Virus record (IMG/VR): IMGVR_UViG_3300042905_005059
Span: 1-64,000 of that record
Strand: one strand, 5' to 3'
DNA: 64,000 bases
DNA from: a virus
Taxonomy: Duplodnaviria; Caudoviricetes
Shown: positions 38,860-55,323 of the stretch, piece after piece
Position numbering within the stretch: position 1 is the first letter of the stretch
Layout of the letters: each line of letters begins with the position of its first letter
The notes under the pieces: model-generated
Told to the model about the DNA's origin: nothing
Seen by the model: the letters and a program-made list of their open reading frames with translations, nothing else
Databases searched by the model: none
Position numbers and translations under genes: made by a program

Positions 38860-38887
38860 ATTATGCGCCTAATTGCTCTTTTGTCAA
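38860..38887 (-). promoter_or_regulatory. sigma70-type promoter, leaderless configuration
   Basis: Minus strand TTGACA-16 nt-CATAAT-6 nt-ATG (38853). Confidence 0.7.
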
Positions 38888-40021
38888 GAAGTAGAAGTAA
38901 TCAGCCTCTTCCTTAAATGCTTCGTCCACCTTATCTGGAACACCGAAAGAATCATTCCTAACGTTTTCGCTATTTAAATTATTTTTACAATGCCATCTGC
39001 TGGCAAAAGTTTTTCCTCCTTTAATTATTATTTTATTAGTCTTAAAGTATACTTTGCTTAAATCAAGACCGTCTAAAAACTTCATGTCCAAAAAGTTAAG
39101 TTTGTTTACTTTTTTAAAATTTAGGTATTTAATTTTTTCTTTATTTATATCTTCTAGAGGCAAGGATGAGATTATTTCGTAGCTAAATTTATTGTCCTCT
39201 AAGAACTGAACAAAATCTGGAGAAGAGTTTTTTTCAATTTTGTAGTATATCTTTTTTATGTTATTTCTATGCTTAAAAAGCAAGTTGGAGTCTATAGCTT
39301 TAGAAGTAACAATGCTAAGAGAATTTAAAGTTAATTGAGCGTTCAAGTTGTGCTCTGAAAATAGGTAGTCCATCCTGACTATCATTTCATTTTTATTGCC
39401 AGCTTTAATTTCAAAACAAGAGTCTGGAATGATTTCTAAACTTTGAGTGGCGTATACTTTGCCGACTGATATGGTACTATCGAAATCATGATCTTCATTG
39501 AGAAGATTCTTAAGTATTTTTTTAGCTATCTCTTCTGGCCTAATGTTATTTATTTTCGCGCTTGTCGGATTATGAAAATTCTTACGCTCTTCTTTTGAAT
39601 GAATAATAGACTCTTCTGAAACTAGAGTATTATCTAAAGAATAGTCAACCTTTAAAAAACATTGCGAGATACTAAACTCTGAGGCTATGAGAGAGTACAA
39701 CTTAGAAGAGCCGCAAAACATTTCAGAGTTTCTAATTATATAGGCTTTTTGATTAATAGAAGCAGAGTTATCAATGTATGTATGATTAAAATAATACTTC
39801 TTGTCTTCTATAAAATGTACTATATTTATCTTATGGTTTTTTAAAATTGGCTCTATAAGCTCTATAACTCTGAACCAAAATACATAATGGTAATTGGGAT
39901 CAGAAGATTGAGTATCAAGAACAATATATTTATTGAAATCTAAAGGATAGAACTTCTCATATATATAAGCGGATTTTGGCTCTAGACCAGTAGTGACAGA
40001 AAAAGATTTTAATAAGTTCAT
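38861..40021 (-). CDS. GT9-like C-terminal half with C-terminal extension (386 aa), probably degenerate
   Basis: N-terminus aligns with 58640-59206: MNLLKSFSVTTGL/MHIIEAYSLYSGL, DFNKYI/DFGKFI, YVFWFRVIELIEPILKNHKINIVH/YKKWQEVISLISPELKSKNINIIQ. Confidence 0.6.
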   Translation of the reverse strand: MNLLKSFSVTTGLEPKSAYIYEKFYPLDFNKYIVLDTQSSDPNYHYVFWFRVIELIEPILKNHKINIVHFIEDKKYYFNHTYIDNSASINQKAYIIRNSEMFCGSSKLYSLIASEFSISQCFLKVDYSLDNTLVSEESIIHSKEERKNFHNPTSAKINNIRPEEIAKKILKNLLNEDHDFDSTISVGKVYATQSLEIIPDSCFEIKAGNKNEMIVRMDYLFSEHNLNAQLTLNSLSIVTSKAIDSNLLFKHRNNIKKIYYKIEKNSSPDFVQFLEDNKFSYEIISSLPLEDINKEKIKYLNFKKVNKLNFLDMKFLDGLDLSKVYFKTNKIIIKGGKTFASRWHCKNNLNSENVRNDSFGVPDKVDEAFKEEADYFYFLTKEQLGA

Positions 40022-41868
40022 TGTACAAGAATAGAGTGGTGATTTTTAATAGAAAAATTATCCAAACAATAGCTTTGAAAGAAATTCTTATTTAAGAAAT
40101 CTGGATCTTCGAATTCTTTGGTTTGAATAATAGCGCTTTCTATCATTGTGTTTCCGGAAAAAACGCTTTGGCAAGTTTCGTTTGAAGATACAAATATCTT
40201 TTTATTTGGATATTTTTCTTTGATGGCAGATATTATTTTTGTAGATAAGAATATATTATCTAACGAAGAATTGATAGAAACAAAGATTCTGTCTTCTGGA
40301 GAGCTTCCTGAAAATAACTCTTCTATTCTGAAAGATTTGTGCTTTTCATTATCTTTCATAGCTACATCTCGGAAATAAGATTCTATAGATTGACGCGGAG
40401 TTCCCTCTTCTATCTTCTTTAACCAATGGTCTAACCCTTCGTCGTCCTCTTTAATTTCGTGATGCAGAATTAATGCATACAAAGATTTAATCCAAATTTT
40501 AGGATCTTCTATGTAAGGCGTGTGCGCGTATGGATTTTTTTCTGGATAAGATATTTTTGATGGCTCGTAATTAGAGTGAGAGCAAGAGTCTAAAAATTTC
40601 TCTATTTTAGATCCAACACTTTCAGTAGAAAAATTATCAATAACCCATTTCCTAGCAACTCTGCCCATTTTTATTTTTTCATTCTCTGACATATCTAACA
40701 CCAGCTTTAAGTTATTCGCTATAGACTTGGGGCAAGTAGAAGCTTTAATAAACTCTGTTCCAAATTCTCTGTACTCGCTCCAATCTAAAGCAATAGATGC
40801 CGCTTCTGGCTCGCACATTTCTTGTCCACAACTATAATTAGTAACAAGAGTAATTAATCCTGCTAATTTAGCTTCTTGGATTGGTATTTCTTGGCCGCCG
40901 CTTGTGAATGGATGGCAGTAAACATCCATAAGATTATATATTTCATTAAGTTGATTTTCAGAAACACCAATGCTAGTGCCGGTAGTTATGCAAGAGTCCC
41001 TTGTCCGACATCTCTCACAATCTGTGCTAGTTTTAGAGAAGTTTTTAATCTCATAATCTTTACAGGATTTGCAAACATATGTAGTTAAAATATCTTTGGT
41101 ATCTACGCCATTTTCTTTACATAGTTTATGAATATTCCATCCTTCATGCCATCCAGTATGCAGAAGCAGCTTGGGCTTTGACTGAGGATTAGCGTCTTTA
41201 AAGATTTTAAATCCTTGGAGTAGGTTTGGAACAGATTTTCTTAATTGATTTCTGAATACGAATCCGATTATATAATTGTCTAATTCTATTTTATTTTTCT
41301 TTCTGATTGAAGCTTTCGCTTCTGGAGGAAGCGGCCTAAAATCAGAGATCTCAATTGTCCCGTGAACAGTTTTAACATGAGTATGTCCAAGTTTATGCAT
41401 TTCTTTTTCTGCGAAATTAGACCATACCCAAAAATTTTTAATCTTAGGAGCTTCTGCTACAGCATTAGAAAGCAATGGCAAGGAATCTAAGGTAGTCCAA
41501 ATAACAGAATTAATTTTATCGAACCAAGGTTTGCCTATGGTATAATCGACTCCCCAAAAGTCTTGAACCCCGATATATATATCAGGCTTTTCTTCATTTA
41601 CTACTCTATCTATTTCAAATGCCCCATAAGAATCGAGCCTTTGCTTCTCTGATGTTAATGCTTCGTTGGCGGTTCCGGCAGCGCCATAACTCTTCCAAGG
41701 AGTTCTTTCTAGCTCTGGATGGTGCTTCGTTATGCCTCCGCATAAAGACACTATTTCGTACTTGTCTGTCTTATATAAATAAGAAAGAAGGGCTTTGGCA
41801 TTTCTACCAAAACCCGTCTTAGACAAAGCAAAATCGGAGTGAAATAAAATCTTCTTCTTTTTTACCAT
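40018..41868 (-). CDS. GT4 (GT-B) glycosyltransferase fused to DUF4214-like and GT9 N-terminal-like domains (616 aa)
   Basis: KTGFGRNAK, FRNQLRKSVPNLLQGF, DVYCHPFTSGGQEIPIQEAKLAG (GT4); SLYALILHHEIKEDDEGLDHWLKKIEEG.PR (DUF4214-like); IFVSINSSLDNIFLSTKIISAIKEKYPNKKIFV (GT9 N-domain-like). Confidence 0.8.
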   Translation of the reverse strand: MVKKKKILFHSDFALSKTGFGRNAKALLSYLYKTDKYEIVSLCGGITKHHPELERTPWKSYGAAGTANEALTSEKQRLDSYGAFEIDRVVNEEKPDIYIGVQDFWGVDYTIGKPWFDKINSVIWTTLDSLPLLSNAVAEAPKIKNFWVWSNFAEKEMHKLGHTHVKTVHGTIEISDFRPLPPEAKASIRKKNKIELDNYIIGFVFRNQLRKSVPNLLQGFKIFKDANPQSKPKLLLHTGWHEGWNIHKLCKENGVDTKDILTTYVCKSCKDYEIKNFSKTSTDCERCRTRDSCITTGTSIGVSENQLNEIYNLMDVYCHPFTSGGQEIPIQEAKLAGLITLVTNYSCGQEMCEPEAASIALDWSEYREFGTEFIKASTCPKSIANNLKLVLDMSENEKIKMGRVARKWVIDNFSTESVGSKIEKFLDSCSHSNYEPSKISYPEKNPYAHTPYIEDPKIWIKSLYALILHHEIKEDDEGLDHWLKKIEEGTPRQSIESYFRDVAMKDNEKHKSFRIEELFSGSSPEDRIFVSINSSLDNIFLSTKIISAIKEKYPNKKIFVSSNETCQSVFSGNTMIESAIIQTKEFEDPDFLNKNFFQSYCLDNFSIKNHHSILVQ

Positions 41869-42443
41869 AGATCTTCATCCGACGACTCAGGCTTGGGAGC
41901 CTCTTCCTTCTTAGGGGCAGGAGGCGCAGCTTGAGTAGTAGCGGCTGATCTATTATCTTGATCTTGAATGGCCTTTTCAAAGATTTTTGCAAGAGAAAGA
42001 GCGAAGTAAGACTCTAGCTTAATGGCTTCTCCAAAAGTAAAGCCCATTAGAAACGAAGTCTTATCTTGAGCGTTTTCCTTGCTCTCCTTGGAGACAGAAA
42101 AAGAATAACCTACTTGAGCCATCTCTGATGGGTTGTCCTTAGTGCCCCTCATGTAAGGCGAGAACTTAATTCGAGTGACTTGCTTTTGGGAGTCGTGGAA
42201 TCCCGTGAATTCGGCATTACGACGCATTGCCGAAATGATATCGCCCACTTCAGTAGAGCTAAGCTTAACAGATGCAGACATCTTTGGATTTTGAGCATTG
42301 CCAGCGAATGAACCGCGCTTCTTGCTCTCGTCCCAACTGGATTGTTTAATTAGATTAACGAAAACACAGTCATCTTTTGCAGAGATCTTAAATGAGCAGC
42401 CGCAACCAGTGTTTTTTGGATTTGGTTTGTAAAATTGAATCAT
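41862..42443 (-). CDS. Putative Whirly/PC4-fold single-stranded DNA-binding protein with acidic tail (193 aa)
   Basis: LSSTEVGDIIS, EFTGFHD, GYSFSVS, FTFGEA.KL..YF.LSL match Whirly motifs in order; ends ...PESSDEDLW. Start moved to ATG 42443 because the track's TTG at 42479 is the -35 box. Confidence 0.6.
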   Translation of the reverse strand: MIQFYKPNPKNTGCGCSFKISAKDDCVFVNLIKQSSWDESKKRGSFAGNAQNPKMSASVKLSSTEVGDIISAMRRNAEFTGFHDSQKQVTRIKFSPYMRGTKDNPSEMAQVGYSFSVSKESKENAQDKTSFLMGFTFGEAIKLESYFALSLAKIFEKAIQDQDNRSAATTQAAPPAPKKEEAPKPESSDEDLW

Positions 42444-42450
42444 GCTATAT

Positions 42451-42479
42451 ATTATGGTGTTTTTGGGCCGAAAAGTCAA
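42451..42479 (-). promoter_or_regulatory. sigma70-type promoter, leaderless configuration
   Basis: Minus strand TTGACT-17 nt-CATAAT-7 nt-ATG (42443). Confidence 0.75.
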
Positions 42480-45040
42480 GTATTTTTGGAGTCAACTTCT
42501 TTCACTTCGGAAAGTTTTGTATATATTTTCAGTGTCTGAATACTAATAGTATCTCCAAATAAACAGTCTTGTTTTTTCACGCCTTTAACGATGACAACGT
42601 CTTCTTCTTTCGGAAGAGTATCAGAGTTCAAAGATTTATTTAAATCTATCTTATCGTTGAAGGTGAGAACTGGAATAGATCCAAATTCATCAGAAAGGAT
42701 CATCTTGAATGTTCTTGTTTTCTTTTCGTTTTTAGATATCCATTCGGAGCTTTCTAAAACTCTGCCAACCACATAAAGCATCTGATTGTTCGGAGCTTCA
42801 GATATTTGCGCTGTAGTTATCAAATTTGGCATTTTACTTTTGAAGATCTCATTCAGAGATTTGTCGTAACTATAGCCAAGCAATTTGTTCTCATAGAACC
42901 AATTAGCAAAGCTTTCTGATTTATTATTCTGCTGATAGATCTTAAGATATGGGTCGTATTTCTTCTTAATAGTTTCTAGGCGACTTTCTTTAATTAAGAG
43001 TTTGCCATTTTCATTCTTGCTTTCAGATAGCTTCTTAACTGTTTTTAACAAATCGTAATCTTGCTCTGGGCCATACTGCATGCTAAGAACCTTTTCCTTA
43101 TCGGTCAAGACGTTCCAAAGCTGAGCTTCTAGCACGACTCTACTCCTTGAGCTAGAGAAGCCATCTAGCGCACCGGCTTGGATAAGGGCCGATAAAACTC
43201 CAATAGAAATGCCAACTTCTTTTGCAGCTTCAAAAACTTCGAATTTATTAGACTGATCAGATTTAAAGTTCTTAAGCTTATCCATCGTCTTTTCAGAGAT
43301 GCCTTTTATAGAAGATAGTCCAAATCGGATATCATTAGTCTGAATAGAAAAATCAGTTTCAGACTTAAGAATGTGAGGTCCAAGCAGCTTGATTCCAAAA
43401 TGCCTCAATTCCTTTTGGATCTTTGAGATCTCTTGCAGAGGGGCTGGCTCATGCTTGGTCATCTCAAGCAAGGCCAAAAAAAACTCTTTTGGATACTTAA
43501 ATTTAAGATAAACAGTGCATGCCGCCAGCGCAGCATAACTCATTGAATGAGACTTGTTAAAAGAATAGTTAGCTGAATTTTCAAGAATACGCCAAAGGAT
43601 GTCACCAATTTCTGGTGCTAGATTATTTTCTTTAATCTTGTCTTTGATCTTTTCCTGCCACTTCTTTACCTCTTCGACTTTCTTTTTACCAACGATTCGG
43701 CGCAAAACTTCTGCTTCATCAAGCGTAAAGCCAATCTTATTGGACATTTTCATTAGCTGCTCTTGGTATAGAGCTACACCTCCGCTGCCTCCCAGCACAG
43801 AATCGAAAAATTCATGAATACCTTCATATTGATTATTGTTCGTAAAATTAGAATATTGATCTACGAACTCAAGCGCACCCGGGCGGGCGAGGGCGAGAAC
43901 ACCGCTTAGCTCTTCAAGATTGCGTGGTTTGACTTTCTTGCATACCTTGAAATTCGTATCAGCTTCAATCTGGAAGCATCCATGAGGAGTTTTAAGATCT
44001 TGAAGTTGCTGATAAATGAAAGAGTCATTAAAATTGATATCATCTACCTTGATACCAACTAGCCTGCAAACTCTATCTATGATAGAAACACTTCTAAGGC
44101 CAAGCAAGTCTAGCTTAACATTAAAGATAGAAGCCCAATTCATATCATAACTAGAAACGTGTTCTTTGTCACTAGTAAGTTCAGTAGGACAGCTTTGATC
44201 TATCGGATAGTATGAAAGCATCATTCCAGATGCATGGACGCTCTTATTCTTAATAAGTCCCCTAAGCTTAAGTGCTGTTTTATATGATCTTGGATTGTTG
44301 TCGCACCAGTTCTTAAAGTCAGGGACATCTACATAAGCTTCTTTAAGATCCATGACTTGGCCGAAGGTCTTTGGAATAAGAGAGCTTATGTCATTCATTT
44401 CTGACTCTGGCTTCTCATCAATAATTTTGCCGCACTCTTTGATAAGAAGTTTTCCACTTAGGGTAGTAAGAGTTAATATCTTGGCTGTTCTGCCAGAAAA
44501 AAGCTGCTCCAAAAATTTAATAACTTTTGAGCGGTTGTAGTAGCAAATATCAATATCTACGTCGCACATCAGCGATCCATCAAGATATGTGATTCCGTCT
44601 ACTACTTGTTTCTTAGCGCGAATCTTGGAGATAAAGCGCTCAAAGAATAGTTCATATTTGATTGGATCTACTTTAGTAACTCCAAGCAAATAAAGAATAA
44701 GACTACCAGCAGCAGAACCGCGCCCAAGGCCGACAGGTATGGAATTTTCGTTACAGTAGTTAATAACAGTCCAAACCAGAAGAATATAGTCAAGAAATCC
44801 AAGTTCTTTAATGGTCTCAAGTTCATATTTTACTCTGTCAGAATATTTAGGGAAATCTTCTTTAGCGATATTTAGTTTCTTGAAATTAGCCCTGCAAATT
44901 TGCATCAAGAAATCATAGTTAGAAGACTCTTCTTTGAGGCCATATTGCTTTTTCAAGCGGCTCTCGATATTGAATTCGGGCAATCTTACGCCATAAAGCG
45001 GAAGCTTAATACTAGAAAATAGAGAATTAAAGTCTTTCAT
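42476..45040 (-). CDS. dnaE: DNA polymerase III alpha (family C) catalytic core lacking the PHP domain (854 aa)
   Basis: GRGSAAGSLILYLLGVTKVDP, FERF, DVDID, HASG, KLDLLGL, LYQEQLM, YSFNKSH, IRFGLSSIKG, C-terminal OB fold. Confidence 0.95.
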   Translation of the reverse strand: MKDFNSLFSSIKLPLYGVRLPEFNIESRLKKQYGLKEESSNYDFLMQICRANFKKLNIAKEDFPKYSDRVKYELETIKELGFLDYILLVWTVINYCNENSIPVGLGRGSAAGSLILYLLGVTKVDPIKYELFFERFISKIRAKKQVVDGITYLDGSLMCDVDIDICYYNRSKVIKFLEQLFSGRTAKILTLTTLSGKLLIKECGKIIDEKPESEMNDISSLIPKTFGQVMDLKEAYVDVPDFKNWCDNNPRSYKTALKLRGLIKNKSVHASGMMLSYYPIDQSCPTELTSDKEHVSSYDMNWASIFNVKLDLLGLRSVSIIDRVCRLVGIKVDDINFNDSFIYQQLQDLKTPHGCFQIEADTNFKVCKKVKPRNLEELSGVLALARPGALEFVDQYSNFTNNNQYEGIHEFFDSVLGGSGGVALYQEQLMKMSNKIGFTLDEAEVLRRIVGKKKVEEVKKWQEKIKDKIKENNLAPEIGDILWRILENSANYSFNKSHSMSYAALAACTVYLKFKYPKEFFLALLEMTKHEPAPLQEISKIQKELRHFGIKLLGPHILKSETDFSIQTNDIRFGLSSIKGISEKTMDKLKNFKSDQSNKFEVFEAAKEVGISIGVLSALIQAGALDGFSSSRSRVVLEAQLWNVLTDKEKVLSMQYGPEQDYDLLKTVKKLSESKNENGKLLIKESRLETIKKKYDPYLKIYQQNNKSESFANWFYENKLLGYSYDKSLNEIFKSKMPNLITTAQISEAPNNQMLYVVGRVLESSEWISKNEKKTRTFKMILSDEFGSIPVLTFNDKIDLNKSLNSDTLPKEEDVVIVKGVKKQDCLFGDTISIQTLKIYTKLSEVKEVDSKNT

Positions 45041-45675
45041 ATTTCAACTTGAAATTTAATTTTATTCCAAACTTTGAGATTTAGTTCCAAATCAATAATT
45101 GCGTTATGAAGATTGTCATAATCGTGCTCTATGCTGTAATCTTTGCCCAAAGCTGTAAGATTAGTTTTGATTCCTTTTTTGTAAGTATGCAGAAGCTTAT
45201 ATTGATATTCGATCAAAGACTCTTTTGGCATCTTAGGAATTCCATATTTGATTCCTTTAGCCAAGCAATTAGTGTCTAGTATTTTATTAACTAGATGACT
45301 TGCTCGCAAACCTTTGAGTAAATACATCTCTTTTATAAGGTAGAGATCGAAGCCAAGAATATTATGACCAACAATGTAGTCAGCAGAGTCAAGCCAATCC
45401 CTAACAGTATCAAAGATATCGTCAAATTTCTTGCCAGTTGTTTGGATAAGCTGTTCAGGATATCTTGTGATTCTTCTGGCATCGTCTGATATTCTAAGAT
45501 TAGTTTCCCACTTGACCAAGAAATCTCGCTCATCAATCTTTTTGCCTCCGACAGTATCAAGCATTGCAATCTGCCAAGGAAGATTTTGGCAAAAGTTAAG
45601 GCAAAGATTTAAAGTCTCGCAATCGATAAAGACAATCTTTTTAGACTTATCAAATCTTAGTAGTTCATTTTCCAT
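45037..45675 (-). CDS. DEDDh 3'-5' exonuclease, DnaQ/epsilon-like proofreading subunit (212 aa)
   Basis: ExoI FIDCET, ExoII VGHNILGFD, ExoIII HNAIIDLE. Confidence 0.9.
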   Translation of the reverse strand: MENELLRFDKSKKIVFIDCETLNLCLNFCQNLPWQIAMLDTVGGKKIDERDFLVKWETNLRISDDARRITRYPEQLIQTTGKKFDDIFDTVRDWLDSADYIVGHNILGFDLYLIKEMYLLKGLRASHLVNKILDTNCLAKGIKYGIPKMPKESLIEYQYKLLHTYKKGIKTNLTALGKDYSIEHDYDNLHNAIIDLELNLKVWNKIKFQVEI

Positions 45676-46432
45676 ATTTTTCTTTGAATGATTCGGCGCA
45701 GAATTCGTTTGAAGAGCAGTGATCTAGATTTGGTTTATTTAAAGTCGTTCTTTCAGAGATGCATCGGAAGGTAAGATAAGCCAAGAAGTCTTCCTTATTT
45801 TCATAGTACACAGACTGTGTTTTGATTGCCACTTGTTTGTTTGCGACAATTTCTTCGACTTTTGATTTAAGAATTTGATCAAATGGTAAATTATTGTCCT
45901 CTACAAAATAAACAGGATTGCAAAAACTAAAATCAGGAACGCAAATACTGTAAGTTAAATTATTCTTAAATACATAAGAATCATAGAACGGGACAGCTAG
46001 GATAAGATTGTCATCATTCCATAATTCTTTTAAAGTCTTGCAATCTATTCTTGGATAGTAATAAAATCCAGTGGTGCTTGCTGTAGTAGATATCTTAATT
46101 AGATTTTTGTATCCTTCAGCGTTTCTTATAAAGATTATTATTTTATGCTCTTTGCCTTTAGAGTCAGCAGTTTTATTGTTGATATCATCGCATACAGTTA
46201 AACGTAAGCCAAACCTCAATTCTATTTTAGCGTCTTCACAAGACTTGTAAGCTTCTAGAAATCCAGAAATGGAATCATCAACAAGGCAAATGCTGCTAAG
46301 ATTTAGCTTTTTAGCTAAATCTATAATTGAACTTGGCTCATCCGACTCGCTTGAGCCAGATTTTGCCAGCGTTAAAATAGATTTCCCAAGGCTATAATGG
46401 GATTTAAAAAGCGGAATCGCTGAATACTCCAT
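45665..46432 (-). CDS. Stand-alone PHP domain of DNA polymerase III alpha, metal ligands degenerate (255 aa)
   Basis: PLFKSHYSLGKS, LVDDSISGFLEAY, FGLRL, HKIIIFIRNAEGYKNLIKIST, YYYPRID follow the DnaE N-terminal PHP pattern. Confidence 0.85.
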   Translation of the reverse strand: MEYSAIPLFKSHYSLGKSILTLAKSGSSESDEPSSIIDLAKKLNLSSICLVDDSISGFLEAYKSCEDAKIELRFGLRLTVCDDINNKTADSKGKEHKIIIFIRNAEGYKNLIKISTTASTTGFYYYPRIDCKTLKELWNDDNLILAVPFYDSYVFKNNLTYSICVPDFSFCNPVYFVEDNNLPFDQILKSKVEEIVANKQVAIKTQSVYYENKEDFLAYLTFRCISERTTLNKPNLDHCSSNEFCAESFKEKYGK

Positions 46433-46437: not shown

Positions 46438-46465
46438 AGTATGGGTCAACGACTCAAGAAGTCAA
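46438..46465 (-). promoter_or_regulatory. sigma70-type promoter, leaderless configuration
   Basis: Minus strand TTGACT-16 nt-CATACT-5 nt-ATG (46432). Confidence 0.6.
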
Positions 46466-47427
46466 TTGAAAAATGGATCATTCTTCCGCCAGTATGGACA
46501 ACCATTGTACTCTTTTTTATTTATAAGTTTAATTTTTGAGTCGTTTATTAATTCTGCTTTAATGAAAGATGATTTAATAAATTTATCATTTTCATCGGTT
46601 CCAATGTAAAAAATCGCTGGAAGTCTTGATGGACAAATCCATTTTCCTTGCACATCGCTACCACACATCCACTTTTTCTTTGGAGAACTAGCAGCAAGAT
46701 TTTGTAAGGCTTTCTTCTCGTCAAAAGAGTTAATATATCCAGCTACATAACTTAAATAAGATTTGAATCCCTCTAATTGCTCCTCAGTAGGCTTAGGAGC
46801 TTGTTGAATTGGTTGCTTTTTAAATTTTAAAAATATAAAAGAAACATCAGGAATATATCCTTTGGTTTTAAATACGGCCAAAGAATACATCAAATTTTGC
46901 AAATTAAAATCTATTTCTTCTTTAGAGAACTTAGCTTTGCTTGACTTGTAGTCGTAAATTTTATATTCAGTGTCGTTAAATTTAGCTAATTTGTCTATGA
47001 AGCCGTTGATGATATAATCATTTTCTTCTAGCTTGAATTCTGATTCTGCTTCTAATAGAACTGAACCATTGCAAAAGAAATCGCTTTGTAGGCCAGTTTG
47101 AATCATCATATAAATAAGATCCAAGTTTTCTTCGTCGTCTACTTTAAGTTTTTTAGCATTTTTTAAAATTAATCTATGTATAGCAGGATTTTTAATTACC
47201 CCTGCTTTCCCAGAGCATAGGTCGTCAAAATACTTTTTATGCCTGTCGGTCAAGAGAAGCTCAAAAATTAAATGACAAATAGTTCCTCTTGAAGCTCCAG
47301 AGTTAGAAATATCTGGAAGCTTAAGAATATACTTAGTATAGTAAAGCCAACTACAACCTTCGATAGTCTTAATCTTGCTGGCGCTAAGTTTTACCTTTTC
47401 GGTTTTTATTTGATTGAGTTGTTCCAT
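46462..47427 (-). CDS. PD-(D/E)XK RecB/AddB-like exonuclease (321 aa)
   Basis: LSASKIKTIEGCSWLYY, RGTICHLIFE, GFIDKL, IYDYKS, Q...Y motif; one N-terminal and three C-terminal Cys, a possible Fe-S staple. Confidence 0.85.
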   Translation of the reverse strand: MEQLNQIKTEKVKLSASKIKTIEGCSWLYYTKYILKLPDISNSGASRGTICHLIFELLLTDRHKKYFDDLCSGKAGVIKNPAIHRLILKNAKKLKVDDEENLDLIYMMIQTGLQSDFFCNGSVLLEAESEFKLEENDYIINGFIDKLAKFNDTEYKIYDYKSSKAKFSKEEIDFNLQNLMYSLAVFKTKGYIPDVSFIFLKFKKQPIQQAPKPTEEQLEGFKSYLSYVAGYINSFDEKKALQNLAASSPKKKWMCGSDVQGKWICPSRLPAIFYIGTDENDKFIKSSFIKAELINDSKIKLINKKEYNGCPYWRKNDPFFN

Positions 47428-48341
47428 TCTATGATTTTATTTTTATCTTTAAGATGTAGATCTCCAAAATCTTTGCCTCCAGTAGGAAGGGCAATTCTAA
47501 CTTGAGAACTATCAAAGTAATTTATTAAAGTTTGTCTTGCTGTCTCTGCGGCTCTATTTCCTGCGCCAGTAAAAAGCCCATCGTTATTAAAAGCTACAAT
47601 TATTTTCTTAGGATTTAAAGATATCAGAGAATATATTATGGCGCTACTTATATTTAGTCCAAAAGAAACCAATACATTCTTAATACCATTTTCTCTCAAC
47701 GCAAGCATGTCTCCTATACTTTCGACTAATATGATGCCATTGCTAGACTTGAGTTCTTTAAGGTTGACTTTGGCTGGATAGACCCATTCTTTTTTGTCCC
47801 CAAGGAGCTTCCATTTCGGCCTGCCCTCCATCAAAGTTTTAGAAATGTCTCTGCCAGCAAAGCCTATTACTTCATCTTTATTGTTAAAGATTGGGAAAAC
47901 GTACCTATTGAACATTTTTCCGCCAGTAGCCACTCCTCCTTGAAAGGGCTCCAAAATAGAATCAGATATACCTCTGTTAGTCCAATAAGAAGAGTCTCTT
48001 AACAATTTAATCAATAAAGACTTATCAAATGTAGAAGTTTGTTTTATTGTTGGCTTTGCCCTGTCTTCTTCTCGATAAGAAGTGTCTATTCCTTTTGCCG
48101 AAATCCAATTCTTGGCTTCATCAATTGATTTTAACTTTAAAGTAAGCCTAACTAGATCTTCTAAAGACCCGCTAATGTTTTCTTTAAAATCTACCCACTG
48201 GCCAGAATTTTTCCAAATTCTTAAAACATGATCATTATCAGAATCTCTATAAAGAGGTCTTGTTCTATACTCTTTGCCATGATCGAATAGAACATATCCT
48301 ATGTCTTGAAGAATTACTCTGACAGATTCGCAGTCATTCAT
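47406..48341 (-). CDS. dnaG: DnaG-like TOPRIM primase with Cys-less N-terminal zinc-binding-like domain (311 aa)
   Basis: YVFPIFN...IGFAGR, ILVESIGDMLAL, VAFNND, KDFGD; adjacent to DnaB. Confidence 0.85.
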   Translation of the reverse strand: MNDCESVRVILQDIGYVLFDHGKEYRTRPLYRDSDNDHVLRIWKNSGQWVDFKENISGSLEDLVRLTLKLKSIDEAKNWISAKGIDTSYREEDRAKPTIKQTSTFDKSLLIKLLRDSSYWTNRGISDSILEPFQGGVATGGKMFNRYVFPIFNNKDEVIGFAGRDISKTLMEGRPKWKLLGDKKEWVYPAKVNLKELKSSNGIILVESIGDMLALRENGIKNVLVSFGLNISSAIIYSLISLNPKKIIVAFNNDGLFTGAGNRAAETARQTLINYFDSSQVRIALPTGGKDFGDLHLKDKNKIIEWNNSIK

Positions 48342-48349: not shown

Positions 48350-49816
48350 TTAAAGCACTTCTCCATCCGAACCTGAGTCATCTAGCTCTGGGCGCAAAGC
48401 TCTTGCATCTACAATATCAGACAAGGTTCCACGCTCTTCTACGTTAAAGTTAGCTATATTAAAACTAATGAAATTAGGCTGATATTTAACTGATCGGCCT
48501 TGTTGAATTCTTACGAGATCGTGATGGCCTTGAGAGTCTCTGCCTTGAAACCGAGTGGCAAGTGGTATCATCTTGTGAGATCCAAAATCCTGCCCATCTT
48601 CAGCGATCTCTTCCACAGTCTTGCGCCTGAAGATAGCGACGTATGAAGCGTACCATTGCAAGCGATCAGATTGAGAGATCGCGCTGCTATCATCCACGCC
48701 ATTCTCTGCGCTTCGATTCAATTGACAAGCAGTAAGAATTGGAACATTTAATTCAAGAGAAAGCTCTTTCAAAGAGTTGACTTTTTCGCCAATCAACTGG
48801 TACTCTTGCTTATTCTTATCTGATTCTCCGGTTAATTTGATGTAGTCATAAATAATAACGCATTGGTTTCCACGGCCAACCTTTGAAAAATACCAGCGCT
48901 TTACAATAGACACAATCTCTCCTATTGGTTTCCCAGCTACCTGAAGATGATCTACTTGATTGCTAACGCTTTTTATTGTGGCTTTACTATCTTGAAATTT
49001 AGCGTAAAGCTGAGCATTCTTTTTCCAATTGCCAGTTTCAAGATGCCATACTGGAATTCCTGTAAGAGATGAAGCTATTCTGAACTTCATATCTATTGTT
49101 GCCATTTCAGTATCAAGGACAAGAGCTTTGCAGCCTTTGTTTATACTTGTTACTTTTATAGCAAGATCATTAAGAATAGTAGACTTACCATGCTTTGGTC
49201 GACTTACCCAAGCATAAAGATTGCCGGGGCGAATGCCGCCATATAAGCGATTGAAGTTTTCGTATGGGGTCTGTAGACCATTTTCAGAAATAGGATTATT
49301 TCCGCGCTCTTCAATGATTTCAATAATATTAGAAGTTACGTCTTCTGGCTTATTGCTTTCATTTGTGTAGACGCAGATTTTACTATTGTAAATTTTATCT
49401 GCTTCTGTTATGATTTCTTCTATAGGCTTGTCGGCGCAATTATGAGCAAAAGCTTTAATTTCTTGCCCAGTTGTTTCGATTTCTCTGCGGATTCTATATT
49501 TCACTAATTCCTTAGCAGCTTCGACTAGGCCCTGCTTAGTGGTTGGGATAAGGCATACACTATTAACATAATTAAAGATGTCAATAGATTGATCTTTGAA
49601 AGTAATGCCAAGATTTTGAGCTTTTTGAGCGATTAAAATCTTATCTATCTGCTCGCCTTTGCTGAACGTTTCTCTAAAGACGCAAAAAATAGTATAATGG
49701 ACTTCGTTGATAAAGTCTTTCTCGTTAATGAAAGATTCTATGTCTGAAAAAGACTCTGGATGTTTGATCAGTCCAGATATGGCGTATTTTTCGATTTGAA
49801 GCGAGTAAATTGACAT
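48350..49816 (-). CDS. dnaB: Replicative DNA helicase, DnaB family (488 aa)
   Basis: Walker A SRPKHGKS, DTEM, IIYDYIKL, VPILTACQLNR; DnaB N-terminal domain pattern. Confidence 0.93.
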   Translation of the reverse strand: MSIYSLQIEKYAISGLIKHPESFSDIESFINEKDFINEVHYTIFCVFRETFSKGEQIDKILIAQKAQNLGITFKDQSIDIFNYVNSVCLIPTTKQGLVEAAKELVKYRIRREIETTGQEIKAFAHNCADKPIEEIITEADKIYNSKICVYTNESNKPEDVTSNIIEIIEERGNNPISENGLQTPYENFNRLYGGIRPGNLYAWVSRPKHGKSTILNDLAIKVTSINKGCKALVLDTEMATIDMKFRIASSLTGIPVWHLETGNWKKNAQLYAKFQDSKATIKSVSNQVDHLQVAGKPIGEIVSIVKRWYFSKVGRGNQCVIIYDYIKLTGESDKNKQEYQLIGEKVNSLKELSLELNVPILTACQLNRSAENGVDDSSAISQSDRLQWYASYVAIFRRKTVEEIAEDGQDFGSHKMIPLATRFQGRDSQGHHDLVRIQQGRSVKYQPNFISFNIANFNVEERGTLSDIVDARALRPELDDSGSDGEVL

Positions 49817-50232
49817 TAAAGATTTATATTGAATTTGTCTTTGAAAAACTGCTCCGTCAGGTCTTTGACTTCATTCTCGTAAATTTCCACTAACTGAAAT
49901 TTATTCAAAGAAAGCCAATTTTCTTTTGCTACATCTCTCTTGATAGACTTTAAATAGTTAAGTCTAGAGTCTGCATGGAAAAACTTATTAAAAGCTGAAT
50001 GCTGCCTGCCGTGAACCTCTACGGCTATTTTAAGCGTTGCATTAATTATGTCTACTTTTAATCTAGACCCAAAGACAGGAAACTCTTCGTAAACTATATG
50101 ATTCTTCCAGTATTTTTTAAGAAACTGCTTGGTATTAAATTGTACTTTAGAGCGAGAAGAAGCATCCCAATCAATTAAATATTGGGACACATTTTTACTT
50201 ACCGCTTTTCCGTACACATTTAAAAGTTTCAT
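49816..50232 (-). CDS. PD-(D/E)XK endonuclease, Vsr/DUF559-like (138 aa)
   Basis: YEEFPV...LKVDIIN...IAVEVHGRQH...RDVAKENWL. Confidence 0.75.
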   Translation of the reverse strand: MKLLNVYGKAVSKNVSQYLIDWDASSRSKVQFNTKQFLKKYWKNHIVYEEFPVFGSRLKVDIINATLKIAVEVHGRQHSAFNKFFHADSRLNYLKSIKRDVAKENWLSLNKFQLVEIYENEVKDLTEQFFKDKFNINL

Positions 50233-51341
50233 TTCTTAAGAGCGCTAATGAATTTATTAAAAAGATACTTAGTTATATCTTCATGTTCTTCGAGGAAGTT
50301 CTTTAGATTTGCTTCGCCTTGATGTTGCTTTGGCATTTCTAAAGAATTATCGGCAAGCTCTTTAATAAGCTCATCAGTAATTGTAATCCAAGCTCCCTTC
50401 GCATGGGCGAACTCCCAAGCCAAAAGCTGGTCTACGATCTCGTATTCCACCCAAACGCTTGACCCATTAGAGCGACCATACTTAATGGGGTATCGAACTT
50501 CTCTGCCAGACTTTTCGTTTGGAGTTTTCTTGAAAACGATCTTGCACCAATGACCAACTGGATTGCCTTCGCCCTTAGCGTTGGCATAAATGAAATCTTT
50601 ATTCCAGCGCTGCTGGAACTCTAGAATCCAATCAGAATAGTGCAAAGCAGCATTTCCGCCGCTTGCGTTGGTAACCTTCGGGTCTCCCTTCTCATATGGG
50701 TTTATCTTGATGGAAGATCTAACCTGAGAGATCAAGAAACAGATATGTCCTCTAGAAGAGAAAGCTGTAGCCATTTTGCGCAAAAGATCAGAAGTAAGTA
50801 GAGCGGCACCAGCAGTTTTGTTGGCTTCTGTAGCAGACTTTGCCAAGTCGTTTCTGGGAACGAGAGCATCAAGACTGTCTATGATAAAGAAATAAATATT
50901 GCCTTCGTCATTATCTTTGATTAGCTCACGCATTGTATCCGTTACAAATTCATAATCATTGGTAGGGATAACTCGCCACTTTGCTGGATCAATATTAACT
51001 CCTGATCTAGACACCATGTTTTCGCTGAGTCGGCCTTCTGATTTGATGTAAATAATGCAGCCTTTTTCAGGATGCATCAATTGAAAATTACGAGCAAATG
51101 CCAGTGCATTGCTGGTTTTGCCGCCTTCAGTAATTCCGGATGATCGGATAATGCCCGGATGAATTCCACCGCCCATCTCAATATCCAAGGTCAGACTTCC
51201 GCTGCTAATGACATAATCAATATTATTGTCAAATGCATAATGGTGATCCTTGTTTCTGTTGAGAATATTATCTAGGACTTTGAGCTTTCCTGATGCTGTT
51301 TGCTCTGCTTGTTCTTGAGCTTCTTTTTTTTGCCTTGCCAT
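50229..51341 (-). CDS. recA: RecA/UvsX-like recombinase (370 aa)
   Basis: ISSGSLTLDIEMGGGI, Walker A GITEGGKTS, IIDSLDAL, FLISQVR, GGNAALHYSD. Confidence 0.92.
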   Translation of the reverse strand: MARQKKEAQEQAEQTASGKLKVLDNILNRNKDHHYAFDNNIDYVISSGSLTLDIEMGGGIHPGIIRSSGITEGGKTSNALAFARNFQLMHPEKGCIIYIKSEGRLSENMVSRSGVNIDPAKWRVIPTNDYEFVTDTMRELIKDNDEGNIYFFIIDSLDALVPRNDLAKSATEANKTAGAALLTSDLLRKMATAFSSRGHICFLISQVRSSIKINPYEKGDPKVTNASGGNAALHYSDWILEFQQRWNKDFIYANAKGEGNPVGHWCKIVFKKTPNEKSGREVRYPIKYGRSNGSSVWVEYEIVDQLLAWEFAHAKGAWITITDELIKELADNSLEMPKQHQGEANLKNFLEEHEDITKYLFNKFISALKK

Positions 51342-51708: not shown

Positions 51709-51737
51709 ATTATGAGGCTCTTCTCAACGCTTGTCAA
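51709..51737 (-). promoter_or_regulatory. sigma70-type promoter, leaderless configuration
   Basis: Minus strand TTGACA-17 nt-CATAAT-6 nt-ATG (51702). Confidence 0.75.
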
Positions 51738-52788
51738 GAAGGTAAATGTCATGCTTTACCATTTTATCTACCAGATTTAAGAAGTTGATCTTTGGATTCC
51801 AGCCCAGCTCTTTTCTTGCTGGCGTAGAATCTCCAACAAGAATATCTACTTCTGCTGGTCTATAGAATTTAGAGTTAATAGAAATAAGCGTGGAAGACAG
51901 AGGTTCTCTCTTTAATGCGTATTCAGTGGTAATAGAATACTCTTCGTTCAAATTCGAGCCGTGCCAATTACCATCAATGTTAGCAATCTTAAATGCAACT
52001 TCAATAAATTCTCTTATAGAATGAGTTTCGTTGCTTGATAAAACATAATCTTTCGGCTTATCTTGGTTTAACATTCTCCAGACTCCATCGACAAAATCTT
52101 CAGAATCTGACCAGTCTCTTTTGGCGTCTAGATTGCCAAGCTCAATTGGAGCAAATGGCTGATTATCTAAAATAGCTTTATAAATTCTTGCTACTCCTTT
52201 TGTGATTTTTCTGGTTACAAACTCTTCTCCGCGCTTAGTACCTTCGTGATTAAAAAGAATACCATGAACAGCATAGAGATTGTAAGATTCTCTATAAACC
52301 TTAACGGCATGCCTTGCTGCTGCCTTAGATGCGCCATATGGACTTCTTGGCCTAATTGGATGATAGATGTCTTGAGGACAGTAAGCTACGTCGCCAAACT
52401 CTTCGCTTGATCCAGCAGAGTAAAATTTACAATCCGGTTTAAATCTACGAATAGCCTCAAGGCATCGAACAACTCCAGTAGCATTGGTGTCAAAAGTTTG
52501 CAATGGAATTTCCCAGCTACATCCAACAAAACTTTGTGCTGCAAAATTAATAAAATAATCAGGTTGGATTTCTTTAACTGCATTATCTACGCTAACGCTG
52601 TCAGACAGGTCTCCATAAATGATCTTGAACCTAGCATCGCCTAAAAAAGCAGAGCAGTTTATAAAGTTAGGATTTGAGCTGCGCCTAATCATTCCAAATA
52701 TTTGGTAATTAGTGTTCTTAAGTAGATATTCTACCATGTTTGCGCCATCTTGCCCTAGAATGCCTGTTACTAGTATTTTCTTATTCAT
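51724..52788 (-). CDS. gmd: GDP-mannose 4,6-dehydratase (354 aa)
   Basis: TGILGQDG, LAAQS-like FAAQSFV, SSEEFG, PRSPYGASK, LFNHEG..RGEEFVTRKIT, LGNLDAKRDW, RPAEVDILVGD. Confidence 0.95.
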   Translation of the reverse strand: MNKKILVTGILGQDGANMVEYLLKNTNYQIFGMIRRSSNPNFINCSAFLGDARFKIIYGDLSDSVSVDNAVKEIQPDYFINFAAQSFVGCSWEIPLQTFDTNATGVVRCLEAIRRFKPDCKFYSAGSSEEFGDVAYCPQDIYHPIRPRSPYGASKAAARHAVKVYRESYNLYAVHGILFNHEGTKRGEEFVTRKITKGVARIYKAILDNQPFAPIELGNLDAKRDWSDSEDFVDGVWRMLNQDKPKDYVLSSNETHSIREFIEVAFKIANIDGNWHGSNLNEEYSITTEYALKREPLSSTLISINSKFYRPAEVDILVGDSTPARKELGWNPKINFLNLVDKMVKHDIYLLDKR

Positions 52789-52789
52789 A

Positions 52790-53149
52790 TTAATATCCTA
52801 TTTTAACTTCTTTTACTTCGTTATTAAAAAATTTATTTTGAAGAGCTACCTTCTTTTGGTATCTGTTATAATTAGAATCATCTACTAATTTTGCCAAACC
52901 ATTATCTTTCTTGACCTGATCTACTAAATCGAATGTATTTTCGTTAGCGTCTCTAAGGTTTTGATATTCTTCGCTTGCTACAATTTGTTCATATAGATCA
53001 AAGCCGATTTGGCTTATGATCTCTTTTGACAAATTTTGATAGTTTGATACAAGCTTTTCTTTGTCTTGTTTGGAAGATTTAATTATTTTAACTTGAGTAA
53101 TACTCAATATGTCGAAAGCAAAACCTTCGTCTAGTGAAATTTTAAGCAT
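52790..53149 (-). CDS. Small helical protein, DUF6165-like (119 aa)
   Basis: ISLDEGFAFDILSITQVK...LRDANENTFD...NYNRYQKK resembles the S.GEL.DK.TIL.IK...N..LW..ED...N..R...K pattern often found beside glycan genes. Confidence 0.45.
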   Translation of the reverse strand: MLKISLDEGFAFDILSITQVKIIKSSKQDKEKLVSNYQNLSKEIISQIGFDLYEQIVASEEYQNLRDANENTFDLVDQVKKDNGLAKLVDDSNYNRYQKKVALQNKFFNNEVKEVKIGY

Positions 53150-54308
53150 ATTTATTTATGGTTGTTATTAAAGAGTCTATTTGATTTTTAGTTACCTTTG
53201 GATGCAGGCCAACATAAAAGCCGTTGTTGTGCAAAAATTCGCTATTTGGAAAGTTTTTATAATCTCCGAATTGCTTATAACAAGTTTGGCGCAGAAGATT
53301 GCCTGATATAATTGGTCTAGTTTCTATTAAATTTCTTTCGCATTCTTTAATAATAGCGGTCAAATCAATTGCATTTTTAAATACAATTGGAATGCAAAAC
53401 GCTACATGGTCTCTATCTGGGAACTCTTCTGGCAACAAAAGCTTTTCATTTGGAAGACATTCCTTAAAGTAATTAAATAATTCAGTTCTTGAGGCTATGT
53501 ATTCACTAGCTCTTTTAAGATCAATTCTTCCAATTAGAGCATGTATATCTGAGTTTCTATAATTATTTCCGAGCAAGAAAAAGTCGAACCTCTCGTTTAC
53601 GTCTTTGTTCAAGAACTTAGACTTTTGATCGTTTGGCAAAGCTCTGACTAAACCGTGGTTTCTCGCTAATAGAAAATAATTATACTCATCATCATCATTG
53701 GTGAAAATAAATCCGCCTTCCACACTTTGGAGTTGATGGCCGAAGTATGTACTTGTGGTAGAGGTAAAGAAAGAGGAGATGTTCTTGCCAGCAAACGAGC
53801 CAAAAGTATTCTCGCAGTTATCCATCAAGACTCTAACTTTATATTTTTTAGATATTTTTTCAAGCCTTTCAACATCTGGAACAAAGCCCAAAAGAGAAGT
53901 TATAAAAATTGCTTCTATAGATTTATCTTTAGATACGACATCTTCTACAACGTCGAGATCCATAGAAAAATCACTTAAATTAATATCCACAAAAACTGGC
54001 TCAAAGCCTTCTCTTACAAAAGGAGAAACTGAAGTAGTCCAAGTTGTTGATGGGAAAATGATCTTTCTGATTTTATTAGTGGAGTTCTTGAGAGAGTCTT
54101 TCAAGTAACAGGCTAAAATAGTATTAGCTGTCGAGCCGCTGGATACAAAAACAGCATGCTTAGCCCCTACAAAATTGGCCATTTCTGATTCAAAATTCTT
54201 TACATGCTTATCCATTGTCCACCTATTGGACGGAAGCAAGAAAAAAAGAGCCAACTTTATTCTATCTAACCAAGTAAACTGAGAGTCATTCAAGTTCCAT
54301 TTTTGCAT
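53142..54308 (-). CDS. colD: ColD-like PLP-dependent GDP-4-keto-6-deoxymannose 3-dehydratase (DegT/DnrJ fold, His in place of Lys; 388 aa)
   Basis: AVFVSSGSTAN, MDNCEN, STYFGHQLQSVEGG (His six residues before EGG where aminotransferases have Lys), RNHG, RPIISGN; next-but-one to gmd. Confidence 0.7.
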   Translation of the reverse strand: MQKWNLNDSQFTWLDRIKLALFFLLPSNRWTMDKHVKNFESEMANFVGAKHAVFVSSGSTANTILACYLKDSLKNSTNKIRKIIFPSTTWTTSVSPFVREGFEPVFVDINLSDFSMDLDVVEDVVSKDKSIEAIFITSLLGFVPDVERLEKISKKYKVRVLMDNCENTFGSFAGKNISSFFTSTTSTYFGHQLQSVEGGFIFTNDDDEYNYFLLARNHGLVRALPNDQKSKFLNKDVNERFDFFLLGNNYRNSDIHALIGRIDLKRASEYIASRTELFNYFKECLPNEKLLLPEEFPDRDHVAFCIPIVFKNAIDLTAIIKECERNLIETRPIISGNLLRQTCYKQFGDYKNFPNSEFLHNNGFYVGLHPKVTKNQIDSLITTINKYA

Positions 54309-55323
54309 ATGTTTCTATTTCTTCCTTTATTTTATTAATTGTATTGTCCCAAGTAAAATTTTTAAGCACGCTTTCTTTGTGTTTTTTTGCTATATCTTTA
54401 TATAGAGAATAATTAATAAAAGAATGATGCAAAGATTCTAAAATATTTTGCCTGATAACTCTTTCGCCATATATCTGACCAGAAAATAAATTGAGAAAAT
54501 GTTCTGGAAAGACATTTATTCCTTTGCTTTGCCACTCTTTGATAGCGTAAGAATCTACGACTTTCATTTCAGTTTTTATTTTTATTGGCTGACTCCATTC
54601 AGGTATGAATTCTTTTAGAGCAGAACCAAGCGTGACTATGGCTGGAGTTCCACACAGAACAGAGTCCATGGGGTTCATGCCAAAAGAAGTAGTATGGTTT
54701 GTGTATAAAAATAAATGGCTTTTATTATAAAGAGTTCTTATAGAGCATTCAGTCAGAGGTTTATTTATATATATGATTTTTTCACATTTTAACGACTCTA
54801 CGTATTTAGCAAAAGCTTCATTTTTGCCATCTTTTATTATTAGTTGGGTATCTATATTTTTACTAAACTCAATAAATGCTGGAATAAGTTCTTCTAGACC
54901 GCTTCTTTCGTTGCTAGAATTAACAGTTAAATATGTAAATTTAGAAAACTTTTCTTCTCCAGTCTCAAACCATATATCTTTATCAGAGCCTAAATGAACG
55001 CTTGAAACTTTTTCATATCCAGAGTTTATTATATTATTTTTGGCAAAATCGCTAATAGCCAAGACTAGCGGATTATATTTTTTGAGTTTTTGAATAACTA
55101 TATTAGGCGTTAAAGAATATTCGCAAGCCAGCAGAGGAATTTGCCTTGCCCACCTTTGTTCAGTGTCGAATACTTCTGGATAAACAACAAAAGTTTTGGG
55201 GTCGTTGATATCGCCTAAAAGGTTATACTTGGAAAAAAATTTGTTTAGCTGTCTGGCGACAATAGTAAATGATCCAAATTCATTTCCATTATAAAGTTTG
55301 TCGTTATAGGCGAATAATTTCAT
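54286..55323 (-). CDS. GT4-like glycosyltransferase (345 aa)
   Basis: VHLGSDKDIW, FTYLTVNSSNERSG, LYNKSHLFLY...SFGMNPMDSVLCGTPAIVT, FTWDN. Confidence 0.75.
   Translation of the reverse strand: MKLFAYNDKLYNGNEFGSFTIVARQLNKFFSKYNLLGDINDPKTFVVYPEVFDTEQRWARQIPLLACEYSLTPNIVIQKLKKYNPLVLAISDFAKNNIINSGYEKVSSVHLGSDKDIWFETGEEKFSKFTYLTVNSSNERSGLEELIPAFIEFSKNIDTQLIIKDGKNEAFAKYVESLKCEKIIYINKPLTECSIRTLYNKSHLFLYTNHTTSFGMNPMDSVLCGTPAIVTLGSALKEFIPEWSQPIKIKTEMKVVDSYAIKEWQSKGINVFPEHFLNLFSGQIYGERVIRQNILESLHHSFINYSLYKDIAKKHKESVLKNFTWDNTINKIKEEIETYAKMELE

Follow-up and report, generated by a model that had tools for sequence, protein, structure and literature searches.

The replication genes of an uncultured phage (Duplodnaviria; Caudoviricetes) raise the question of which protein binds the single-stranded DNA (ssDNA) handled by its replisome. 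The phage is represented by a stretch of 64,000 nucleotides (positions 1 to 64,000 of IMG/VR record IMGVR_UViG_3300042905_005059; hereafter, the window), and a sequence-only reading of this DNA had proposed that the gene directly downstream of dnaE encodes a phage ssDNA-binding protein (SSB) related to the Whirly proteins of plants. Here we find that the product of this gene, termed P0001, belongs to a large phage family that is homologous to Whirly proteins. P0001 is a divergent member of the Whirly lineage, which is the tandem β4-α-β4-α ('type I') form of the PC4-like superfamily, and we consider it fairly probable that it is the SSB of a Pol III-type phage replisome and of the recombination genes that accompany it. 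The predicted fold, the homology, the conservation of tail and promoter, the synteny and the lack of a recognizable canonical SSB are results of the analysis, and from them we infer ssDNA binding, a tetrameric state, partners for the tail and a role in replication.

Gene, fold and homology of P0001

The Whirly-like gene occupies positions 41862-42443 on the minus strand and consists of 193 codons, with its stop at 41864-41862. Its ATG lies 32 nt 3' of the stop of an 854-amino-acid (aa) DnaE-type core, and its translation is a protein of 193 aa that ends in PESSDEDLW. The earlier description of a 193-aa protein directly downstream of dnaE is therefore accurate, and all of the other sequence features that had been listed for this locus are likewise present. 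An open reading frame (ORF) of 205 aa that opens with a TTG (41862-42479, minus strand) was considered as the extent of the gene and rejected. In the alignment, the start MIQFYKPN is common to all homologues of P0001, and because they all begin at the same M-I-Q-F-Y-K, the ATG at 42443 is taken to be the real start.

An AlphaFold2 model of P0001, built from an alignment of 26 close relatives, has a predicted local distance difference test (pLDDT) score of 88 and a predicted template modelling (pTM) score of 0.77, and shows two successive β4-α units followed by a disordered tail. Residues 1-170 (41934-42443, minus strand), most of which are predicted with pLDDT >90, form a Whirly-type domain made up of strands β1-β4, a helix at residues 63-74, strands β5-β8 and a long helix at residues 137-170. 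The remainder of the protein (41865-41933, minus strand; pLDDT <50) comprises a disordered linker rich in Pro, Ala, Lys and Glu (residues 171-188) and an acidic tip, DEDLW (residues 189-193).

When the model was compared with structures in the Protein Data Bank (PDB) using Foldseek, the ten best matches were all plant Whirly proteins (WHY1, WHY2, WHY3, StWhy2 and PBF-2; E 3e-6 to 2e-5), and these were followed by MRP1/2 and Pur-alpha. An exhaustive structural alignment against 48,161 representative chains (VIA) gave the same answer: PBF-2 aligned with Z 16.1 and, over 139 residues, 3.1 Å root-mean-square deviation (rmsd), StWhy2 with Z 15.8 and trypanosome MRP1/2 with Z 15.1, and the next chain reached only Z 7.2. 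A separate ESM Atlas model of P0001 also matches a Whirly-annotated cluster (TM score 0.65/0.81). The comparison with Why2 structures by AlphaFold and Foldseek that the sequence-only reading had suggested thus returned a Whirly fold for the P0001 monomer, with VIA in agreement. Like Whirly proteins, the model contains a tandem β-β-β-β-α repeat within one chain. It therefore differs from the single dimerizing β4-α unit of the PC4/YdbC/T5-SSB type (type II), since it has two such units per chain; the PC4 homologue BPSL1147 covers one half of the model only (Z 4.6 in VIA). It also differs from SSBs of the bacterial type, whose oligonucleotide/oligosaccharide-binding (OB) fold is replaced here by a Whirly-type fold, and P0001 has no match to PF00436.

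At the level of sequence, the relationship to Whirly proteins appeared only with a broad family profile. P0001 alone had no match in Pfam or PHROGs scans, a phmmer search of PDB sequences with P0001 gave no Whirly match, and a profile of 26 close relatives matched no Whirly chain among the PDB sequences. Only a profile of 123 diverse members of the P0001 family reached Whirly there. The six best PDB sequences for this profile were all plant Whirly proteins (among them PBF-2 at E 4.6e-4, WHY2 at 0.007 and StWhy2 at 0.01), and MRP1 was found in the same search at E 1.2. In the HMMER alignments of the family profile with PBF-2, AtWHY2 and StWhy2, the motifs LSxTEiGsiIs, eFFHD, GyfisLSV and vTxAEFAVmxtaFsFAL are matched, which reproduces the motif pairs that the sequence-only reading had listed against plant Why2.

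Matches to the Pfam Whirly family, PF08536, were present in 23 of the 123 family members at E up to 1. Two members, P0062 (52% identical to P0001; 25.1 bits) and P0146 (23.6 bits), score above the gathering cut-off of 23 bits, and P0201 scores 22.7 bits. A PF08536 search of three related genomes that encode the family gave no match, indicating that the Pfam model is insensitive to this branch rather than that the family is absent. For a direct comparison of the two families, angiosperm WHY2 proteins were retrieved using a 78-residue stretch of AtWHY2 as the query. Using hhalign, the phage family aligned with 20 angiosperm WHY2 proteins over the second repeat with a probability of 85.7% (E 5.4e-6), and the phage hidden Markov model (HMM) matched 120 of 120 retrieved plant WHY2 proteins at 24-35 bits; identity between P0001 and plant Whirly is only 16-19%. 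Profile-level comparison with Whirly, which had been put forward as a check on the proposal, is thus positive by PDB sequence search, by PF08536 on family members and by hhalign. Because the fold matches, the 123-member profile, the members recognized by PF08536, the hhalign result and the plant WHY2 scores all agree, homology with Whirly is established at the level of the family, and P0001 is a divergent member that is missed by the Pfam model.

Tail, gene order and promoter across the family

Residues 1-160 of P0001 carry a net charge of +7, and the core is positive in 120 of the 123 family members, with a mean charge of +5.4. The C-terminal extension is of low complexity, ranges in length from 11 to 89 residues and is acidic in 111 of 123 members (mean charge -4.8). 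Its last residue is W in 48 members and F in 39 (a total of 87/123), usually preceded by Asp or Glu, and at least three of the last ten residues are D or E in 99 of 123 members. Some members terminate in ...DIPW or ...NIPF, and the tip of E. coli SSB is DDDIPF. The acidic, aromatic-ended, SSB-like tail that had been noticed in P0001 is thus conserved family-wide, and P0001 shares with bacterial-type SSBs the combination of a disordered linker and an acidic aromatic tip.

An acidic residue together with a C-terminal Trp is found in plant Whirly proteins as well. In plant WHY2, a variable linker of ~25 residues follows the domain and leads to an invariant Glu-Trp in ...LEWDK; in StWhy1, Glu271/Trp272 contacts Lys188 of the domain, and mutation of the Trp increases ssDNA binding (PMC9070903). 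The DEDLW of P0001 has this combination too, a likeness of motifs that fits both homology and convergence. The tip of the phage protein could thus have been inherited from Whirly ancestors, have converged on the SSB type, or both.

An HMM search covering 1.84 billion cluster representatives assigned 673 clusters (50% identity) to the P0001 family at E up to 1e-3, a number that falls to 542 when the limit is set at 1e-10. P0001 also has 58 close homologues. Gene order was compared in 70 loci, of which 68 are IMG/VR viral loci and two are contigs binned into metagenome-assembled genomes (MAGs). The position of the Whirly-like gene, just 3' of the DnaE core, is the same in 70 of 70 loci, down to 34% identity of the Whirly-like protein. 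Genes for PD-(D/E)XK, PHP and exonuclease proteins precede the core wherever the fetched DNA extends far enough, and a glycosyltransferase (GT)-like gene, p386 and p231 come next in most loci. One distant family member is located elsewhere, after PhoH. The spacing varies among relatives: ~930 nt separate the DnaE core from the Whirly-like gene in eleven loci (L032, L042, L046-L048, L053, L055, L060, L066, L068 and L071), and a further relative has genes on the opposite strand, including a GP38-like one, between the exonuclease and the core. The two MAG contigs, each ~20 kb (L074, from a 'Pseudomonadales' MAG, and L075, from a 'Promethearchaeota' MAG), have the order DnaE core, Whirly-like gene, GT-like gene, p231; both probably come from phages and entered the MAGs through binning, and they provide no evidence of a host or of cellular homologues.

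The lineage is made up of uncultured viral contigs of ~160-180 kb, including a 174.5-kb relative (36% G+C) that was reassembled from ten stretches. A megablast search with 12 kb and a tblastn search with P0001 (E 1e-3) gave no match among 50,697 phage records, and among isolates the DnaE core has no relative above 33% identity, so that these searches point to no cultured relative or host. At least 17 metagenome studies of lake water, dated 2020-2025, contain sequence near-identical to positions 40800-44000, which makes this a widespread freshwater phage.

The tail and the genomic position also bear on two roles other than that of an SSB. In one, P0001 would bind RNA, serving as an mRNA chaperone or matchmaker like ChmC or MRP1/2. 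Structurally, MRP1/2 score near plant Whirly in the VIA comparison, and ChmC, whose homotetramer has a Whirly fold, binds RNA by preference and carries a C-terminus that is disordered and in part acidic (PMC11077065). However, the sequence matches of the family are to the ssDNA-binding Whirly proteins of plants, with MRP1 far behind them; the tail has an SSB-type aromatic tip instead of an N/G-rich condensate region; the gene is located in a replication operon; and the tblastn search gave no match in a set of phage records that is presumed to include ChmC-bearing phages. In the other, P0001 would be an ssDNA-binding transcription cofactor, of the kind of PC4/Sub1, PBF-2 or the N4 Drc protein, that activates middle or late phage promoters. 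PBF-2/StWhy1 was originally described as a transcription factor. In some phages, PC4-fold and other ssDNA binders act as RNA polymerase cofactors (PMC7145618). Yet no RNA polymerase or sigma gene is linked to the locus, the linkage to dnaE is constant, and the conserved tail is of the SSB type. Given the affinity to ssDNA-binding Whirly, the type of tail and the operon, we consider RNA binding very improbable and a cofactor role slightly more improbable still.

A sigma-70-like promoter, TTGACT-17-CATAAT, is found at 42451-42479 (minus strand), and its -10 element ends 7 nt 5' of the ATG in a leaderless-type layout. The Whirly-like gene thus has a promoter-like site of its own, as the sequence-only reading had it. 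Of 51 distinct upstream regions from relatives, 41 carry a promoter of the same type that ends 4-8 nt 5' of the start, with spacers that have diverged, and the promoter 5' of the Whirly-like gene is also kept in locus L001. In the window, the pattern TTGAC[AT]-16/17-CATAAT ending 6-7 nt 5' of an ATG occurs at 38860-38887, 42451-42479 and 51709-51737 (all on the minus strand), and the only other genes with this layout are p231 and a 118-aa ORF that precedes the RecA-like gene. Together with the Whirly-like gene, these two may form a co-regulated set of ssDNA-handling genes. Judged from the DNA sequence, the layout implies a leaderless or near-leaderless transcript that would be made independently of dnaE, as would suit a protein of which far more is required than of the polymerase. 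In two metatranscriptome libraries, short contigs all fall inside the Whirly-like gene and none on dnaE or the gene downstream; since parts without coverage carry no evidence, this shows the presence of the gene in RNA libraries and not an expression above that of its neighbours. Both RNA-library contigs have a G>A change at 42324, which is probably a strain variant.

The replication module and the role of P0001

The sequence-only reading had noted that no OB-fold SSB is evident in the window, and this held for the 38 window ORFs that were scanned with Pfam or PHROGs (the replication side and most structural genes), none of which matched an OB-fold SSB family. Likewise, in three related genomes rated 96-100% complete by CheckV, no match was found to PF00436 (SSB), PF08804 (gp32), PF10991 (gp2.5-like), phrog_44 or TIGR00621. 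We take phrog_44 to be an SSB family, consistent with its pattern in the control genomes: it matched the same ten bacterial genomes as TIGR00621, all of them among the eleven matched by PF00436. In the 174.5-kb relative, no ORF except the Whirly-like one has both a low-complexity linker and an acidic tip with Trp or Phe as its last residue; the relative's two other ORFs with acidic, aromatic ends (180 aa and 88 aa) matched no SSB family.

The genes around P0001 are those of a replication and recombination module, all encoded on the minus strand. The DnaE-type core (42476-45040; PF07733, PF17657, PF14579; phrog_405) is without a PHP domain, and next to it lie a DEDDh exonuclease gene (45037-45675; PF00929) and a PHP-domain gene (45665-46432; PF02811), both syntenic in relatives. 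The Pol III alpha-type polymerase is thus divided into separate PHP, DEDDh exonuclease and PHP-less core genes (42476-46432), and this split is kept in all related loci. Pfam and PHROGs identify a PD-(D/E)XK exonuclease (46462-47427), a DnaG-type primase (47406-48341) and a DnaB-type helicase (48350-49816), and these are joined by a RecA/UvsX-like recombinase (50229-51341; PF00154, E 8e-16). Between the genes for DnaB and the RecA-like protein, an ORF of 138 aa (49816-50232) has weak PHROG matches to HNH/homing endonucleases. On the other side lies the GT-like gene (40018-41868; 616 aa; weak PF00534 match, phrog_2170), which begins at an ATG within the last codons of the Whirly-like gene, giving an overlap of 7 nt. 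Sugar-nucleotide and glycosyltransferase genes are dense around the replication module (51724-61157 and 38861-41868), and include GDP-mannose dehydratase, DegT-type aminotransferase, GT1, GT9, GT17 and GT2-like genes.

Beyond the GT-like gene lies p231 (P0329; 38158-38853, minus strand), a candidate Rad52/Red-beta-type annealase of 231 aa. It belongs to no Pfam or PHROG family, and an AlphaFold2 model (pLDDT 81) resolves it into two domains. The N-terminal domain resembles RAD52 (Z 7.1), Mgm101 (Z 6.3), phage 80-alpha Sak (Z 6.0) and the N-terminal domain of Red-beta (Z 5.8), and the C-terminal domain resembles the C-terminal domain (CTD) of Red-beta (Z 6.6, rmsd 1.9 Å over 55 residues), all of these Z values being below 8, in the range where chance arrangements occur. 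That both domains agree makes a Rad52/Red-beta-type annealase a reasonable lead; the gene is moreover conserved and syntenic in most loci and has the same type of promoter as the Whirly-like gene. On these models, p231 is probably a single-strand annealing protein, an assignment offered as a lead only. Structures are available of the Red-beta CTD bound to a peptide from the SSB C-terminus (8tfu) and to lambda exonuclease (6m9k) (PMC9512822), and p231 could similarly dock on the acidic tip of P0001.

This set of genes brings up a third role, in which P0001 would be an accessory protein of recombination and repair that binds resected ssDNA and passes it to the RecA-like protein or to p231, much as plant Whirly proteins protect the genomes of organelles, while replication is served by the SSB of the host. 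Plant Whirly proteins act in double-strand-break repair and not as the main replicative SSB (PMC3245945). The window contains a PD-(D/E)XK exonuclease, a RecA-like gene and the annealase-like p231; the Whirly-like gene has its promoter type in common with p231 and with the ORF ahead of the RecA-like gene; and the Red-beta CTD, to which the C-terminal domain of p231 is likened, was solved with an SSB tail peptide. In every locus, however, the Whirly-like gene is directly behind the polymerase core and not beside the recombinase or p231, and no other kind of phage SSB was found in the three near-complete genomes. Furthermore, T4 gp32 and T7 gp2.5 serve both replication and recombination, and the two roles are not exclusive. 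We regard an accessory role, the main rival of the SSB reading, as unlikely, while giving it real weight.

A replicative SSB of Whirly descent remains the reading that we favor, and a number of observations weigh against it. P0001 itself has no match to PF08536 at E up to 1. The KGKAAL hallmark of Whirly strand 1 is absent from P0001, whose N-terminus reads MIQFYKPNPKNTG. By the end-points of the VIA alignment (model residue 1 = StWhy2 residue 60), which give an approximate register, Y5-K6 would correspond to F64-K65 and N8 would stand in place of K67. The hhalign alignment of the N-terminal half, with a confidence near zero, is in a different register from these end-points, and neither of the two is relied on for residue-level claims. 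At most, the [FY]-K that precedes and opens KGKAAL is kept: its probable counterpart is the nearly invariant Y5-K6, and the second Lys of the motif, going by the alignment end-points only, would be Asn in P0001. That Lys is needed for the formation of 24-mers and for cooperative binding. Green-algal Whirly-like proteins are also without the KGKAAL motif (PMC9070903).

Further points concern the genomic evidence and the range of ligands. All 70 loci belong to one phage lineage, so that the synteny represents a stable linkage and not an independent association. The genome searches for SSB families use a loose first filter and would miss novel or very divergent SSBs, and as phages can use the SSB of their host, a missing phage OB-fold SSB is no proof of the role of P0001. 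Lastly, proteins of the Whirly fold are able to prefer RNA, MRP1/2 being an example. Phage ChmC is another protein of this fold with such a preference (PMC11077065).

As a replicative SSB, P0001 might work as follows. On the model of StWhy2, its basic β-sheet surfaces would bind ssDNA without sequence preference. In the StWhy2-ssDNA complex, the phosphates are hydrogen-bonded and the bases are stacked between the sheets of neighbouring subunits. The long, exposed C-terminal helix (residues 137-170) probably builds the tetramer, as in Whirly and MRP1/2. In the free state, the flexible linker would let the acidic Trp tip fold back on the DNA-binding face, and in the DNA-bound state, the tip would instead recruit partners, for instance the polymerase, exonuclease, primase, helicase, RecA-like protein or candidate annealase p231; this proposed behaviour is modelled on the tails of E. 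coli SSB, T7 gp2.5 and T4 gp32 and on E271/W272 of plant Whirly. An SSB has to be present in many copies, and the dedicated promoter next to the ATG would provide for this.

P0001 among Whirly, PC4-like and OB-fold proteins

Among characterized proteins, P0001 is most similar to the plant Whirly proteins (StWhy1, which is PBF-2 p24, StWhy2 and AtWHY1/2/3; PF08536; 1l3a, 3n1h, 4kop, 4koo). They have in common the tandem fold (Z 16), the second-repeat motifs LSxTE.G..I, F[FY]HD with its His, G[YF]..S[LV]S and.T.[AG]E...L, the long C-terminal helix, a variable linker and an acidic-Trp motif (DLW in the phage, LEW in plants). Plant Whirly proteins have a basic ssDNA-binding core, and the core of P0001 is basic too. 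Unlike them, P0001 is without KGKAAL and without a transit peptide, is encoded in a phage Pol III-type replication operon, and has its Trp as the very last residue, as in the tips of bacterial SSBs. With the OB-fold SSBs (E. coli SSB, T7 gp2.5 and T4 gp32), P0001 shares a basic core, a flexible low-complexity linker, an acidic aromatic tip and a gene within a replication module. Because its fold is Whirly/PC4-like and not OB, this is a likeness in function and architecture and not one of family.

Other phage and mitochondrial proteins are related in fold. The SSB of phage T5 has a PC4 fold (Steigemann et al. 2013, cited in PMC7145681), and thus offers a precedent for a PC4-superfamily fold in place of OB, as proposed for P0001; T5 SSB is a single β4-α unit that forms dimers (type II), whereas P0001 is a tandem type I protein. 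ChmC, from nucleus-forming jumbo phages, is a phage protein with a Whirly fold, a homotetrameric state and a disordered C-terminus, and it differs from the P0001 family in its RNA preference, its N/G-rich condensates, its association with the phage nucleus and its lack of detectable Whirly sequence similarity (PMC11077065). In contrast, the tail of P0001 is rich in Pro, Ala, Lys and Glu, and its family is detectably homologous to plant Whirly and encoded behind dnaE. MRP1/2, the RNA matchmaker of kinetoplastid mitochondria, has the same tandem fold (Z 15.1) with a sequence match of only E 1.2. A Whirly fold in a phage (ChmC) and a PC4-superfamily phage SSB (T5) are therefore already known. Our literature searches found no paper that describes a phage Whirly-type SSB, and what is new relative to the literature searched is a large Whirly-homologous family at the SSB position of a Pol III-type phage replisome, with an SSB-style tip.

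The sequence-only reading had noted that Whirly proteins are generally described as plant-specific and had suggested that their origin may be phage-related. The plant literature does call Whirly plant-specific (PMC9070903), but databases attach the name to phage and bacterial proteins as well. UniProt labels at least one uncultured-phage protein 'Whirly transcription factor', and in the ESM Atlas there are Whirly-labelled clusters of mostly viral or mostly bacterial members, the bacterial ones being chiefly from Verrucomicrobiota, with PF08536 in 73% of members. Since the Verrucomicrobiota clusters carry PF08536 more clearly than the phage family does, a phage origin of plant Whirly is not favored.

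A broader proposal, which we think doubtful, concerns a large clade of freshwater phages of ~160-180 kb whose Pol III-type polymerase is encoded by three genes. In this clade, the place of the OB-fold SSB would have been taken entirely by a Whirly-type protein, with a terminal acidic-Leu-Trp tip that is homologous to the invariant LEW of plants and that docks replisome and recombination partners, including a Rad52/Red-beta-type annealase with a Red-beta-CTD-like domain. If this were true, the C-terminus of plant Whirly would be an SSB-style hub, and the pairing of Whirly with Rad52-like proteins in plants would be descended from a prokaryotic or phage SSB-annealase module.

The P0001 family bears on two unsettled matters, namely where plant Whirly proteins come from and what their conserved C-terminal Glu-Trp does. 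It provides a sequence set with which Whirly proteins from plants, algae, bacteria and phages could be placed in a rooted tree. Among the few non-OB candidates for a replicative SSB, it would be the second case from the PC4 superfamily after T5. As a large, easily expressed phage family encoded in a defined replication operon, it may offer a simple system in which to study how the Whirly fold meets ssDNA at the replication fork and what the tail does there.

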